Assembly: GCF_033153115.1 (NCBI RefSeq)
Contig: NW_026889777.1
Location: forward strand, 18,104,001 to 18,168,000
From: Saccostrea echinata
Taxonomy: Eukaryota
Direction: 5' to 3'
DNA: 64,000 nt
How positions within the stretch are numbered: the first letter of the stretch is position 1; every line of letters starts with the position of its first letter. Below are positions 10,945 to 32,346 of this stretch, piece by piece. The notes under the pieces were generated by a model. The model was not told the DNA's origin and did not search any database. It was given only the letters and a program-made list of their open reading frames with translations. A program made the position numbers and the translations under genes.

Positions 10945-11028
10945 AGTAGTATAAGAAGCCTAGATAGGCGGGTCAACTGAGTGCACTTTTGGGCCCCTGG
11001 GGGGACGGGCGGGTCAACTCAGTGCACC
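10945..11028 (+). repeat. Left TIR of Polinton
   Basis: AGTAGTATAAGAAGCCTAGATAGGCGGGTCAACTGAGTGCACTTTTGGGCCC... is the reverse complement of 32264-32346. Contains an internal ~41-bp GGGTCAACTnAGTGCAC repeat. Confidence 0.95.
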
Positions 11029-11247
11029 CCCGGGGTCAAGGTCAGAGATCTGGAAAAACCCGCACGCGCGCTCAGCACGTTCTGAGATCTGGAAATTCCT
11101 GAGATGTGAGATGTGAGATCTGGAAAAACCTGCACGCGCTCAGCACTCACCTGGAAAAACCTAGCCATTATGACGTCATACAGTGTATAAGTATTGCATG
11201 TGTCTGACTTGAAGCTCATTCTGTTCTCAGTTCCATCACCTGTCGAC

Positions 11248-14200
11248 ATGGATTCTGCTATGAAAAAACTGTTACATGCCCAGCAACTGATGAGATGGAG
11301 AAGACGGGCGAAAGAGTTAGAAAGAATTATTTACAACAATAAACACAGAGAATTAGCGCTCAGAAAAAGAAATGCCAGAATATTAGATAGAATGCAGAGA
11401 GCCCAAGTCCAACAAGAACAACAAAGGACTGTGTCGGATGAAGAACCACACTCATCAGCCCATTCACCACCCCGGAAGCCAAAGGCCATTTCCCAATATT
11501 ATCAATTTAGACTGAAACAAGCCAAGCATTCCAGAAAATTTAAAGCGCATGAAGATGTCTACAGTGTGAATTTTAAGGAATTTCCAGAGGAGGAAAACAG
11601 AGGCTTTGTTCGGCGATTATTTAGAGACATGCTGCAAGATGTCAAATATCAAATGCAGTGTAATCCTAACGATTACCTACGCCTGAACATACGCCATCCT
11701 TCTCTGGATTCCGACATTTGGTACGAGTTTACGCAATGTAAACATTTGAACGAGGACGTCATTTTAGACAAAATAGAAGCCGTGCAACAATCCAAGAAAG
11801 ATTTTAAACTGGGAGACGGGGCCATGGAATTCGACATGTTTCGGGTCAAGTATCCGGAAGGGAGTGGTGGAGACAAAACCAAACATCTGATGTTGAATAA
11901 GGAGAGTTTTAAGAAGGGAAAAAGAAGTATCGTTCAGATCGACAATCCTTGGGATAAGTTTTGTTTAGCTCGAGCCATCGTAGTCACCCGGTTATACAGT
12001 GAAAAACCTGAACATCCAGAGAGTTTAATTGAATGGGAAAAGCGATGGATACGTATGCGGAAAGGAGATGTAAGAGCTAATGACCAGAAAAACGAAGCCC
12101 TAGCTCTCATGGAACAAGCCGGGTGTGATATCCATCGGCCTTGTGGACCCGAAGAAAGGGGGAAATTACAACAAGTGTTAGCCCCATGCTATCGACTGAA
12201 AATATTCCAGTTCAAGTCCACCTCCTCTAAACTCACCTTAGAACCCATTTACAAAGGATACGGAGATGGAACTTGTTTGAATGTCCTGTTAAACGACCAT
12301 CATTACGATGCCATCATATCTATGCCAGGTGTGACGGGCAATCAATACTACTGTGATCATTGCGACGTGGGCTACAGAAACATCACAGACCATCGTACCC
12401 AGTGTCCTCACCGATGTTCCTTTTGTTTAACCGACACGCCCTGCCCTCCAGACGGGAGCCGCATTCAATGTAGCCAGTGCCAGGGAGTTTTTCAGAGTAG
12501 GACTTGCTACCAAAATCATCTACGGCCTCACAGTAACAATACGGCCACCACGGTATGCAGTTTAATGGGGCGATGTGACCATTGTCAGAAATGGATGTCT
12601 AAAAGATTACTCCCTCATCATCATTGCGGAGGACAGAAACAATGTAATATCTGTAAGAAAACCGTAGACACGGATCATCAGTGCTACGTTCAACTCAAGC
12701 CCGAGAAAAAGAAAAAGAAGGGCAAAGAGACCTTACAGTTCTACATCTATTTCGATTTCGAATGTACGCAGGAAACCGGCATCCACGTCCCTAACCTGTG
12801 TGTGGCACACCGCGTATGTCAACATTGCGGTCACTTACCCATAGAAGATCCCTGTCCTCACTGTCGACACATGGGACCCCGTCAACACCTGTTCCGAGGG
12901 CCAGAGACCTTAAGGCAGTTCATGGACTGGTTATTACAACCCACTACAGGAAATAAGAATTCCGCCTTATTACACGACGAGGCCATCATCATCGCCCACA
13001 ATTTCAAAGGATACGACGGACAGTTCATTTTAAATTACCTGGTTCATTCCGCCTGCCTGAAACCTACCGTCATCATGAACGGCAGTAAAATCTTATCCAT
13101 GCAAATCTGCGGACTGAAATTCATCGATTCCTATAATTTTTTACCTTTTGCCCTGTCCAAGATGCCCTCTGCTTTCGGATTCACTGAACTGAAGAAAGGG
13201 TATTTCCCTCACTTTTTTAATACGGAACAGAACCAGAATTACGTGGGGCCTTATCCACCGGCAGCTTACTACAATCCCGACGACATGTCTATAAGTGGAC
13301 GACAGGCTTTTTACCGATGGTACGAACAACAAGCCGGAAAAGTGTTTGACTTCCAGAAGGAATTTTTAGAGTACTGTGTCTCGGACGTCGATATTTTACG
13401 ACGATGCTGTGCTCAGTTTAGAGCCACCCTCAAGAGCTTGGTCCATGTAGACCCCTTCAAGGAATCCATCACTTTTGCCAGTGCGGCCAATTTAGCCTAC
13501 CGTCGAGGATTCATGCCCAAAGAGACCATTGCCATCATTCCCAACCTGGGGTATCAGCCTGCGCGTCGATATTCCGCCAAAGCCTGTCGGTGGTTAAGCT
13601 GGATGAGTCACCAGACCGGATCTCACATCCAACATGCTAGAAACGGGGGAGAAGTCAAGATCGGAAGTTATACCGTCGACGGATACCAGGAAGCCACTCG
13701 CACCGTCTACGAATTTTACGGATGCTATTGGCACGGATGCCCCACCTGCTATCCGAATTTACAGACCAAAAGTCATCCTCACCGGACCCAATTTACCTAT
13801 GAACAATTACACGAGGAAACTTTAAGACGGAGTTCTGTTTTAGAGGAAATGGGGTACTCCCTCCGTAGCATCTGGGAGCACGAATTCGATCAACAGGTAC
13901 AAAGAGAGGTAACTCTACAGAATTATGTACGAGACCTGGACATTCCAGATCCTTTGAACCCCCGAGACGCCCTGTACGGAGGTCGGACTAATGCCACTAA
14001 ATTATATTGTGAGGAGGGGGACATGAGATACGTGGACGTCTGTTCCTTATACCCTTACGTATTAAAACACAGACCTTTCCCCCTAGGCCATCCTCAGATC
14101 ATAACAGACCAATTCCAGGACATGAGAACTTATTTCGGCCTCATTCACTGTCGGGTCCTACCACCCCGAGGCCTCTATCACCCCGTTTTACCTTATCGCA

Positions 14201-31283: not shown

Positions 31284-31979
31284 ATGGCACAAGCAATGAT
31301 GAATACCAAAGACAACCCCAATTATGCGACACCTGAAGGCTATGTCATAGCCCCCATGCCAGAGACTCAGGATCCTGTAGGACTGGACTTGGGATTGTAT
31401 AATTTCCCAGAGCCCATGACCAAAGAGGACTTTGGTATTTTAACCAACACGTTAGAGGGGATAGTCAACATGCTAAACCAGATGCAAGTGAATGCAAATA
31501 AGTTTGAAGAGAAAGTCATGAGTGAATTCGTTGACCTGAGAGAAATAATGGCCCAACTGGAGGATAAAGTGTGGAAAATAGAAGAAGAAAAAGGTAGAGA
31601 ACCCACAGACACAGAAGCTCCAAAGAAAACCAGAGAGACCAACCCCTGTTTCATCTGCAAAGAGTTAGGACACTGGGCCCCTGAATGTCCCAAGAAAGAC
31701 CTATGCTACAAATGTGGAAAATTTGGACATTGGGCCGATAAGTGTGACCAAAACAAACTGTCTGAGAAGAAGAAGAAACCATCCAAGCCCCAGGAAAAAA
31801 AAAAGACGCAGGAAAACATGAGTCTCGGGGACAAACAGGGTGATTTATTAAACATTCCTGTAGAAGCTATTGTACATCAGGAGAACAAAGAAAATCTGAT
31901 TCCACTGGACCAGCCTAAGAAAAGAAAACACAAGGAAGAGGTCAAGAAGTCCCTGAAACTTCAAAAGAAGAAGAATTGA
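31284..31979 (+). CDS. Coiled-coil + twin CCHC zinc-knuckle protein with a captured macrodomain N-terminal peptide
   Basis: CFICKELGHWAPEC and CYKCGKFGHWADKC; TATA at about 31220; ACCATGG Kozak; AATAAA at about 31997. Confidence 0.85.
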   Translation: MAQAMMNTKDNPNYATPEGYVIAPMPETQDPVGLDLGLYNFPEPMTKEDFGILTNTLEGIVNMLNQMQVNANKFEEKVMSEFVDLREIMAQLEDKVWKIEEEKGREPTDTEAPKKTRETNPCFICKELGHWAPECPKKDLCYKCGKFGHWADKCDQNKLSEKKKKPSKPQEKKKTQENMSLGDKQGDLLNIPVEAIVHQENKENLIPLDQPKKRKHKEEVKKSLKLQKKKN

Positions 31980-32263
31980 CTTTGTATCATACTTAAATAA
32001 AAAGAGTTTTTAAACTTTAACATTGACTTGTTTTTCTTTTTTTTTTTTAGAATAACAGCTGGAGATCAGCTGTGTTTTTAAAGTGTCAAAATTAAGCAGC
32101 CAGAGAGGCGATGAAGGACTAGGATGACGTCATAATCAAGATTTGAATCGCTGCCAAGTTTAGGGCTAGGTAGGATCTCACATGGATTTTTTTTTTGTTT
32201 TTCAGACACTTTAAGGGCATAAAAGTGCACTTAGTTGACCCGGCCATCCCCCAGGGGCCCACA

Positions 32264-32346
32264 GGTGCACTGAGTTGACCCCCCCATCCCCCCAGGGCCC
32301 AAAAGTGCACTCAGTTGACCCGCCTATCTAGGCTTCTTATACTACT
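32264..32346 (-). repeat. Right TIR of Polinton
   Basis: Ends ...CTAGGCTTCTTATACTACT followed by CACGTT. A third internal repeat copy extends to about 32221. Confidence 0.95.

Follow-up and report, generated by a model that had tools for sequence, protein, structure and literature searches.

The 64,000-nucleotide window of Saccostrea echinata DNA analysed here contains a 21.4-kb Polinton (10945-32346) that is a young provirus, already decaying, and not intact because the frame of its minor capsid gene is broken. The reading that we favour, and consider somewhat probable, is that the accessory genes of this oyster Polinton dampen the cell's intrinsic stress responses while the element replicates in the nucleus. 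The initial annotation had described a virus-style counter-defence toolkit, and host-control cargo is indeed borne out by an IAP and a macrodomain.

The termini of the element read AGTAGT...ACTACT, and the alignment of its TIRs spans 84 columns, of which 81 are identical, with two mismatches and one gap. A pPolB, a retroviral-type integrase, (AGT)2 TIRs with a 6-bp TSD, a packaging ATPase and an adenain identify it as a Polinton/Maverick, confirming the earlier assignment to a bivalve Polinton on TSD, TIRs and core genes. Each ORF's own frame was preferred in all 18 of the 18 ORFs subjected to a leave-one-out codon test. The near-identical TIRs and perfect TSD uphold the proposed recent integration, but the accompanying claim of open ORFs fails at the minor capsid gene, whose main frame stops at 23489-23491 and whose C-terminal part lies in another frame, an assembly error being possible. 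Among 17 frame segments, the minor capsid profile matches 22631-23488 (E 9e-10) and 23481-23582 (E 2e-4). The features are collected in Table 1.

Table 1. Features of the Polinton and its flanks, in window coordinates.
Feature	Position	Strand	Basis or remark
Left TSD, 6 bp (CACGTT)	10939..10944	.	same as 32347-32352
Left TIR, AGTAGT at start	10945..11028	+	81/84 columns identical to right TIR
pPolB promoter block, four GG-W5-CC sites and CRE	11050..11180	+	motif scan
Protein-primed DNA polymerase B (pPolB), PF03175 type, OTU-like Cys/His motifs, nuclease-like insert	11248..15291	+	PF03175 1.5e-57
IAP, single BIR and RING, intronless	15413..15955	+	Pfam BIR 1.9e-20, RING 3.5e-12
A32-like packaging ATPase	16004..16645	+	Pox_A32 3.2e-6; 35-41% to L002/L004/L005 ATPases
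Basic 310-aa protein, putatively core-protein-like	16691..17623	+	ORF, TATA and Inr; weak L002 match
Conserved 131-aa Polinton ORF	17674..18069	+	30% to L003, E 3e-6
289-aa ORF	18066..18935	+	frame backed by codon model
Retroviral-type integrase, C-terminal chromodomain	18932..20023	+	rve 7e-11, Chromo 1e-8; DDE motifs
Hydrophobic 86-aa ORF	19993..20253	+	ORF and codon model
Accessory ORF, paralog of 22016-22519	20359..20829	+	27% identity, E 8e-13
Cys-rich zinc-finger protein, RING-like or ZZ-like C-terminus	20975..21421	+	weak matches
Internal regulatory cassette	21455..21720	+	CRE block common with 32095-32230; repeats common with 30960-31135
Accessory ORF with acidic tail, paralog of 20359-20829	22016..22519	+	sequence comparison
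Minor capsid (penton) gene, broken	22631..23585	+	profile of three related minor capsids
Basic 278-aa protein, putatively core-protein-like	23736..24572	+	ORF, promoter, codon model
Major capsid protein (MCP), probable	24647..26068	+	homology and gene context; 28-30% to L001-L005 ORFs
Adenain-type maturation protease	26068..26571	+	profile: ASFV S273R 6e-11, adenain 0.003
Macrodomain, DarG/TARG1/Poa1p-like class	26724..27224	+	profiles, AF2, structure comparison
Two tandem histone-mRNA-type 3' stem-loops	28575..28678	-	stems 28601-28616, 28658-28673
GC-rich RING-like gene	28702..29415	-	202-aa ORF to 28807 and 34 more in-frame Arg/Gly-rich codons
PP1/eIF2alpha adaptor (putative), 68 aa, DP71L-sized	30371..30577	-	RVxF-like KCVTF and W..xDRxRFQRR
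137-aa ORF, missed initially, overlaps adaptor frame	30520..30933	-	codon model
Inverted copy of 11050-11130	31114..31193	-	95% over 82 bp
Two-knuckle CCHC protein	31284..31979	+	zf-CCHC 3.4e-12
Right TIR, ACTACT at end	32264..32346	-	pairs with left TIR
Right TSD, 6 bp (CACGTT)	32347..32352	.	same as 10939-10944

The pPolB retains Exo/Pol catalytic motifs, and upstream of the exonuclease lie OTU-like Cys (residues 236-245) and His (351-356) motifs within a region, residues 1-371, for which Pfam returned no match. Five related loci (L001-L005) were available, and the pPolB of L002 has similar motifs, but its phmmer comparison was non-significant. An OTU dyad is described in both adintovirus PolB classes (PMC8502044), and vOTU has been proposed to cleave the terminal protein. 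It is for this reason that we propose the dyad as a general pPolB feature serving the polymerase's own terminal-protein processing, instead of the ubiquitin counter-defence for which it had been taken. The nuclease-like insert gave weak matches (E 0.0015-0.013), including an endonuclease PHROG over residues 817-885 (E 0.0015). The major capsid protein is assigned by homology and context, as its homologs in L002-L005 adjoin protease and integrase or ATPase genes; sequence and profile searches of the PDB returned no match for it, and its single-sequence AF2 model (pLDDT 34.5) is too poor to judge a double jelly-roll fold. The 86-aa ORF has no family match in Pfam or NCBIfam. All five related loci are fragments of 1.4-7.7 kb from MAG or symbiont assemblies; these fragments contain no accessory-gene matches and no Rfam matches, and they are too short and too distant (MCP identity 28-30%) to serve as a test of cargo conservation.

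The IAP, as first annotated, is well supported by its Pfam scores, with both a BIR bearing CCHC zinc ligands and a C-terminal RING; its best PDB match is cIAP1 (1.6e-29). Thirteen relatives share 45-97% identity, 12 of them labelled Saccostrea and drawn from two species, and the BIR residues His78 and Cys85 are invariant in the 12 of 12 aligned IAPs. At least three of the 13 are host-annotated gene models fused to a neighbouring Polinton ATPase or unknown ORF. From these relatives, invariant ligands and fused models, the IAP is, as judged by sequence comparison, a stable gene of the Polinton lineage, with private changes at two well-conserved positions in the present copy. A number of IAP genes catalogued as the host's own in Saccostrea are Polinton genes, a point that matters when the bivalve IAP expansion is counted and explained.

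The macrodomain ORF has no Pfam match, but its profile matches to solved macrodomains reach 8e-10, with NCBIfam DarG at 3.8e-5 and a 'phosphatase' PHROG at 1.7e-19. An alignment of 84 sequences has 34 columns with at least 80% conservation, all of which it retains, and its AF2 model has a pLDDT of 94.6. Against five chains representing BT1257, Poa1p, DarG and TARG1, the model gave Z 14.5-17.1 with rmsd 2.3-2.7 over 134-144 residues; fold and glycine-rich loop are alike, although identity to solved members is 16-20%. Alphavirus and coronavirus macrodomains share the fold at lower Z (12-13.0). The macrodomain call therefore holds, but the parallel with coronavirus antagonists is not supported: on the predicted model it ranks nearest to DarG/TARG1/Poa1p, ahead of coronavirus Mac1. 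Among viral structures the closest is that of a wsv206-like protein from a nimavirus (31% identity), a type annotated as macro in endogenous nimaviruses that carry IAPs too.

This class assignment bears on a clearly unlikely alternative, in which only the IAP, perhaps with the adaptor, is counter-defence, while the macrodomain, OTU, RING-like and CCHC products serve replication, repair, chromatin access or packaging. Beyond the structural ranking and the proposed role of vOTU, it is consistent with macrodomain relatives fused to PIF1 or AlkB-type domains in 3 of 20 scanned and with annotations among relatives that include UDG, NADAR and SNF2. Yet DNA-linked ADP-ribosylation can itself act as a restriction mechanism (DarT/DarG), nimaviruses and giant viruses retain this macrodomain family, as do 161 phage records, and the accessory genes have a promoter motif in common with the IAP.

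The putative PP1 adaptor forms the end of a 169-codon frame beginning at 30880. The first ATG downstream of the TATA at 30979 opens the overlapping 137-aa ORF, which the codon model prefers over adaptor codons 1-101 by 55 log units while backing the last 49 adaptor codons; on this codon evidence we discarded an adaptor of 169 aa. The 137-aa ORF is without a family match in Pfam, NCBIfam and PHROGs. Three independent libraries agree on the adaptor, each weakly: Pfam PF10488 (1.4e-4; 22 bits against a curated cut-off of 26.1), the PDB (PPP1R15B 2.8e-4, DP71L 0.016) and the Atlas, where the top three clusters bear PF10488 at scores of 0.87-0.88 (below 0.9, a lead only). The sole RVxF-type match in the frame and an eIF2alpha-binding motif stand at the spacing of PPP1R15B and DP71L. 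ASFV DP71L, HSV-1 ICP34.5 and PPP1R15A/B likewise place an RVxF-like motif about 20 residues before an eIF2alpha-binding helix, and DP71L is 71 aa long against 68 here. Unlike these proteins, the Polinton adaptor is overlapped by an upstream ORF, scores below cut-off and sits in an integrating element, and its binding is predicted. No homologs were found among six candidates near its length or 17 longer ones, in a set of proteins of at least 92 aa, larger than the likely adaptor. Since 12 upstream ATGs precede it on the likely transcript, the adaptor may go untranslated or be what is left of a fusion whose frame was broken. The PPP1R15-like assignment thus keeps its two motifs at family spacing and loses its family-level score; a PPP1R15 mimic, probably comprising just the last 68 codons, is plausible, with provisional PF10488 membership.

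The zf-CCHC score and two knuckles sustain the CCHC protein, but the two RING-like proteins were only partly upheld: 28807-29415 and 20975-21421 each contain four Cys pairs ending in CPLCR, while family-level scores fall short (for the former, Pfam RING E 0.067 and MDM2/MDM4 RING E 0.006, both below cut-offs; for the latter, top PDB matches to ZZ-type fingers at E>=0.02). The accessory ORF at 20359..20829 has a 65% homolog in the S. cucullata gene model P0013. An LxCxE ('Oncoid') motif is absent from the accessory ORFs of the 21.4-kb Polinton, a point of difference from the adintoviruses.

Internal shuffling is clear: an 88-bp copy of the macrodomain gene 5' end lies in the 3' part of the CCHC gene, promoter blocks are duplicated and the terminal repeat is split, the segment at 31114-31193 being readable either as the inner half of that repeat or as a duplicated promoter. 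Such a pattern would be expected if the accessory ORFs were captured pieces that recombination moves about close to the ends and that evolve by neutral drift. The same view would account for the outlying GC3 of the GC-rich RING-like gene (0.69 against 0.27-0.49), in which an in-frame stop precedes the GC-rich tail, and for an adaptor without homologs. We regard such drift as very unlikely, as the IAP is kept in two species with its zinc ligands, the macrodomain retains every conserved column, and codon adaptation goes together with exact TATA-Inr spacing.

Behind the GC-rich RING-like gene stand the two stem-loops, which differ by one compensated pair; a purine-rich tract follows the distal one. 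Scanned on the sense strand, one scores 36.5 bits (cut-off 34, E 1.9e-7) against Rfam RF00032 and the second copy 20.4 bits, so that two matches are seen against 0.05 expected, with a fold z of -4.0. The gene's Arg/Gly-rich codons end 28 nt before the first hairpin, and no AATAAA occurs within 431 nt after its stop. This mRNA is probably processed like histone mRNA and would therefore be tied to S phase. The resemblance to a histone mRNA 3' end extends to the 6-bp stem, 4-nt loop, flanks, purine tract and nearby stop; the differences are the non-histone RING-like gene, the mobile element and the tandem arrangement. If a non-histone gene does use such an end, S-phase mRNA processing would have been hijacked in an unusual way.

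Of 16 ORFs examined, 12 have TATA and Inr elements at 29-34 nt, whereas the rate for background ATGs is 1.5-3.5%. A Pol II promoter for every stand-alone gene had been claimed; this fails at the PP1 adaptor, whose TATA reaches the 137-aa ORF first. The motif GG-W5-CC, which we take to be a Rel/NF-kB-like site, occurs 14 times in 5,047 non-coding nt (shuffle mean 0.98, maximum 4 of 300) and CRE four times against 0.02 expected by shuffle, counts to be read in light of a post hoc choice of the kB-like motif and of many copies lying in duplicated blocks. Both motifs are concentrated at the polymerase and most accessory promoters and not at capsid and packaging promoters, whose late-gene upstream regions are shorter (45-150 nt), and this split suggests a candidate set of early genes that respond to stress or immune signals of the host.

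Apoptosis, eIF2alpha phosphorylation and ADP-ribosylation are general stress responses, and the cargo might instead keep germ cells or early embryos alive through the DNA damage of replicative transposition confined to them. That would suit a germline-integrated copy with its TSD, an S-phase-type hairpin appropriate to dividing cells and the broken minor capsid, but the genes for capsid, protease and ATPase persist along with promoters of their own, and the putatively Rel/kB-like early promoters better fit immune-responsive cells; we judge it rather unlikely. No sequence feature tells somatic infection apart from replication in the germline, and the somatic antiviral immunity first proposed gains no support. 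A satellite or domesticated element that depends on a larger DNA virus, or defends the oyster against one, with cargo manipulating the co-infection, is extremely improbable: there are reports of Polinton-like viruses linked to entomopoxviruses, and the macrodomain family is common to large DNA viruses of marine hosts, but the promoters and poly(A) signals match the type used by host Pol II, and there are multiple near-identical mobile copies in place of one fixed locus.

In the favoured reading of stress-blunting cargo, the lineage would replicate in the nucleus and use host Pol II, and an expressed element, by synthesising linear DNA and late proteins, would provoke cell-intrinsic stress responses. 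Early promoters with Rel/kB-like and CRE motifs would answer host stress or immune signalling; the BIR-RING IAP would restrain caspase-driven death, the 68-aa adaptor would steer host PP1 to phospho-eIF2alpha and re-open translation, the DarG/TARG1-like macrodomain may, at replicating ends, clear DNA or proteins of ADP-ribose, and histone-type processing would link the RING-like mRNA to S phase. A bolder extension, possible but tentative, has the Polinton wired into its host at three levels, through Rel/CRE early promoters, an SLBP-route RING-like mRNA restricted to S phase and an adaptor whose place behind an overlapping ORF would let it be produced chiefly under eIF2alpha phosphorylation, in the manner of host GADD34, with a sizeable share of the intronless IAPs credited to a host expansion in bivalves being Polinton genes. 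Genes directed at apoptosis and translation, together with signal-responsive promoters, argue that such elements truly replicate in the face of cell defences, a programme to be sought in dividing cells that are stressed or immune-activated.

New here are the histone stem-loop behind a RING-like gene, the Rel/kB-like and CRE motifs at promoters and the host-annotated IAPs fused to Polinton genes. A paper on mollusc histones (PMC3256202) has no stem-loop text. Bivalve IAP-expansion papers ascribe intronless IAPs to retroposition and nowhere use 'polinton' or 'maverick' (PMC7831173, PMC8917759, PMC13159474); their IAPs resemble the present one in being intronless, dispersed, short and host-annotated, but come from other species, so that overlap with Polinton IAPs is presumptive. 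Comparison with published catalogues lowers the novelty of the IAP and OTU, which were already known: the adintoviruses and Polintons of PMC8502044 (Alpha class with PF03175-type PolB) match in a pPolB with OTU-like motifs, rve with chromodomain, ATPase, adenain, a probable hexon, penton and TIRs, and IAP labels stand beside their Mytilus and Pinctada maps, while the main text and part of the supplement mention no macrodomain, PP1 adaptor or stem-loop. Passages of 10.1101/2023.08.22.554363 describe mollusc pPolB2 Polintons with a VSR insert, alike in a nuclease-like pPolB insert and marine mollusc host, although the match is weak here; those passages do not discuss cargo. According to PMC8097293, neither the virions nor the life cycles of animal Polintons have yet been observed. 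Vertebrate Mavericks have (AGT)2//(ACT)2 ends, a 6-bp TSD, lengths of 12.7-24.6 kb and TIRs of 46-1,447 bp (PMC8097293). The oyster element fits them in ends, TSD, size, TIR range and accessory regions, and differs in having all core genes on one strand and accessory genes both interleaved and terminal.

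Where the initial annotation had seen a broad counter-defence toolkit, the accessory cargo of the Polinton reduces to a solid IAP gene, a macrodomain of DNA-repair class and a plausible PP1 adaptor. The element itself is borne out by its termini (AGTAGT at the start, ACTACT at the end), an identical 6-bp duplication on either side, terminal inverted repeats (TIRs) identical in 81 of 84 aligned columns, and its core genes; ends, duplication and TIRs agree with the vertebrate Maverick definition in the accessible part of PMC8097293. The sequence contains no Ns, and its GC content is ~40% versus ~32% in the flanks. 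The core genes include pPolB (PF03175 in Pfam, 1.5e-57), an A32-like ATPase, an integrase with chromodomain and an adenain-type protease (profile match to ASFV S273R, 6e-11). The major capsid was recognised solely through gene context and 28–30% identity to ORFs of five related loci, its fold not being demonstrable by PDB sequence or profile searches, an AF2 model or a viral fold search. These loci are Polinton core-gene fragments in bacterial MAG or symbiont assemblies (Solemya gill symbiont, Sedimenticola, Ignavibacteria), and are probably host DNA binned together with bacteria. Mollusc pPolB2 Polintons with a VSR insert have been described (10.1101/2023.08.22.554363). That the Polinton is a satellite or domesticated element appears extremely improbable.

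One S. echinata gene model unites the BIR with an ATPase that shares 99% identity with the window's own; near-identical copies of the Polinton therefore exist and the insertion, judged by its sequence, is consequently young. Recent integration was thus upheld, but the accompanying claim of open ORFs was not, as the minor capsid frame is interrupted by a stop, with the remainder in another frame; both segments align to a profile built from three related minor capsids. It is possible that the damage to this copy is an assembly error. Its IAP carries two private changes at well-conserved positions.

Features of the Polinton and its surroundings (window positions)
Feature	Position	Strand	Remark
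LINE-like fragment	9130-10005	-	looks like degraded reverse transcriptase/endonuclease
Polinton	10945-32346		
Left sub-terminal block	11050-11130		inverted copy at 31114-31193
Accessory ORFs	20359-20829, 22016-22519		paralogous pair; one with 65% homolog in S. cucullata
Cys-rich ORF	20975-21421	+	
Minor capsid stop	23489-23491		profile matches main frame up to here
Minor capsid remainder	23481-23582		different frame
AT-rich gap	27225-28570		no convincing ORF
Tandem histone-mRNA-type 3' stem-loops	28575-28678	-	RF00032 above cut-off
RING-like gene	28702-29415	-	202-aa ORF to 28807
AT-rich gap	29416-30370		no convincing ORF
Direct repeat, 150-bp	29969-30118/30141-30286		97%
PP1 adaptor	30371-30577	-	last 68 codons of frame
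137-aa ORF	30520-30933	-	helical-looking; overlaps adaptor frame
CCHC gene	31284-31979		between right TIR and inverted block copy
Second element	33262-41759		~8.5 kb, 900 bp from Polinton; ~1-kb terminal inverted repeats (93-95%), 400-bp internal inverted repeat, no long ORF
LINE-like fragment	41748-42191	-	as for 9130-10005
tRNA-Ser (ARAGORN)	55837-55928	-	possibly SINE-derived
LINE-like fragment	56273-56695	-	as for 9130-10005; the only one of the three with a Pfam match
Tandem array	56771-57379		45-46-bp unit
LINE frame	58292-62167	+	open, 1,291 codons; endonuclease and reverse transcriptase

The IAP comprises a BIR and a RING with zinc ligands retained. Of 25 candidates in a search, 13 matched; 12 of these carry a Saccostrea echinata or S. 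cucullata label, and identity reaches 97%. Three of the 13 are gene models that continue into the adjoining Polinton gene, either the ATPase (P0002, P0006) or a homolog of ORF 20359-20829 (P0013), and for this reason the IAP is, on sequence grounds, a fixture of this Polinton lineage in two oyster species. Alongside this conservation, we regard it as very improbable that the accessory genes are passengers. The three NCBI models are named host IAPs, yet are chimeras of adjacent Polinton genes. Novelty of the IAP as cargo could not be maintained, since adintovirus homologs are already published (PMC8502044, where the text layer of Fig. S2 places IAP labels beside Mytilus and Pinctada maps). Intronless genes in the bivalve IAP expansion have been put down to retroposition (PMC7831173, PMC8917759, PMC13159474); the accessible portions of these papers mention neither 'polinton' nor 'maverick', and one reports DNA transposons enriched near IAP genes. 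Mavericks make up 1.7–1.9% of the hard clam genome (PMC8905726). The Saccostrea result may extend to the other species of those papers, and the mis-annotated Saccostrea IAPs are a testable addition to the story.

The macrodomain gene lacks a Pfam match and has 3,152 relatives at E<=0.001. An alignment of 84 sequences (the window's own and 83 of the 150 relatives listed) yields a confident structure model, for which the best structural matches are BT1257, Poa1p, DarG and TARG1 (Z 14.5–17.1, rmsd 2.3–2.7, 134–144 aligned). Alpha- and coronavirus macrodomains rank lower (Z <=13.0), so that the domain is retained but appears closer to the DarG/TARG1/Poa1p class than to a coronavirus-like one. Among viral models a nimavirus wsv206-like protein comes closest, followed by marseillevirus and pithovirus proteins annotated as UDG, SNF2 and NADAR, and PIF1 or AlkB-type domain fusions occur in 3 of 20 relatives scanned. 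The structural ranking, viral annotations and fusions would therefore point to ADP-ribose removal tied to DNA metabolism. Endogenous nimaviruses with wsv206-like macro domain annotations also carry IAPs (PMC7016691). As first noted, pPolB contains OTU-like Cys and His motifs; they do not amount to special ubiquitin cargo, since an OTU-like domain is described in both adintovirus PolB classes (PMC8502044). A proposed task of this domain is cleavage of the terminal protein, and because vOTUs of other viruses double as deubiquitinases (10.1101/2024.03.18.585575 for both), such a second role is possible by analogy, though not peculiar to this element. A mostly housekeeping function of the accessory genes appears improbable.

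PPP1R15B (E 2.8e-4) and DP71L (E 0.016) both align to the adaptor over its RVxF-like motif and eIF2alpha-binding helix; PMC10807198 served for comparison with known adaptors. The claim of a PPP1R15-like protein holds to this extent, but the match to PF10488 is below cut-off and most of the frame belongs to another ORF. The three best Atlas clusters contain 71–101-aa, chiefly viral proteins, with PF10488 in 29–41% of members and a single Preplasmiviricota record in one cluster; at scores of 0.87–0.88 these are a lead only. No sequence homologs were found among 6 near-length and 17 longer candidates (all at least 92 aa). A single protein from the 169-codon frame was rejected by a codon model that had the element itself as training set and prefers the adaptor frame solely over its last 49 codons. 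The overlapping 137-aa ORF, which contains the first ATG downstream of the TATA box, is the true coding frame across adaptor codons 1–101; it has no Pfam, NCBIfam or PHROG match. Because the model gives these 101 codons to that ORF, the adaptor would most likely be a 68-aa protein translated behind it, or the tail of a frame-broken fusion.

The RING-like gene and the Cys-rich ORF each have four Cys pairs, with weak matches to MDM2/MDM4 RINGs and to ZZ fingers, respectively. The CCHC protein has two knuckles (Pfam) and is a putative RNA binder; its gene is arranged as if placed inside a longer terminal repeat, and 88 bp of its 3' part are copied from the start of the macro gene. Splice-site-like motifs were seen by eye in the AT-rich gaps.

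Downstream of the GC-rich RING-like gene and in sense orientation to it, the minus-strand segment 28575-28621 matches RF00032, the stem-loop of histone 3' UTRs (36.5 bits, cut-off 34), with a second copy 57 nt upstream that differs in one compensated pair; the Rfam scan of the window and the five related loci returned nothing else. The gene has no poly(A) hexamer within 431 nt downstream. Its stop is followed by 34 in-frame Arg/Gly-rich codons, ending 28 nt ahead of the first hairpin, and the distal hairpin by a purine-rich tract, presumably in the position of the histone downstream element. The simplest reading would be histone-type, S-phase-linked 3' processing of this mRNA. The accessible text of PMC3256202, on mollusc histones, does not mention the stem-loop.

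A TATA box followed 29–34 nt on by an Inr precedes 12 of 16 ORFs, versus 1.5–3.5% of background ATGs (four ORFs overlapping their upstream neighbour were omitted), and poly(A) hexamers lie behind 13 of 19. For the motif GG-W5-CC, picked post hoc without a motif library, the 5,047 non-coding nt of the Polinton contain 14 sites (mean 0.98, maximum 4 in 300 shuffles) and 42.6 kb of the flanks contain 8; its copies are not independent, because several sit in duplicated blocks. We take it to resemble Rel/NF-kB sites. It lies upstream of 7 of the 15 ORFs having non-coding upstream DNA (pPolB, IAP, Cys-rich, 22016 ORF, macro, 137-aa/adaptor, CCHC) and is absent upstream of the ATPase, two basic proteins, ORF131, minor and major capsid, ORF 20359 and the RING-like gene. 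The CRE palindrome occurs four times in non-coding DNA versus 0.02 expected. From the observed genes, motifs, promoters and conservation of IAP and macrodomain, and with all activities and expression predicted, we somewhat favour a reading in which the accessory genes would damp cell-intrinsic stress responses while the element replicates in the nucleus, driven by early promoters tuned to host signals. Germline self-protection appears unlikely, and the sequence does not separate it from the somatic antiviral immunity proposed in the initial annotation. The promoter logic and the histone-type 3' end are further testable points.

Among the components, the Polinton, OTU and IAP are already known. 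A Polinton with a macrodomain was not found in the literature searched, nor, among the matches listed, one with a GADD34/PPP1R15/ICP34.5/DP71L-type gene. Neither cargo was found in the main text and part of the supplement of PMC8502044, and the corresponding terms were absent from the text of 10.1101/2024.03.25.586562 and from the accessible portions of 10.1101/2023.10.06.561300 and 10.64898/2026.10.13.758929. The 391 PP1/eIF2-motif proteins tabulated in 10.1101/2025.02.28.640897 could include Polinton proteins; DP71L, as described in that paper, has the size of the 68-aa candidate adaptor.
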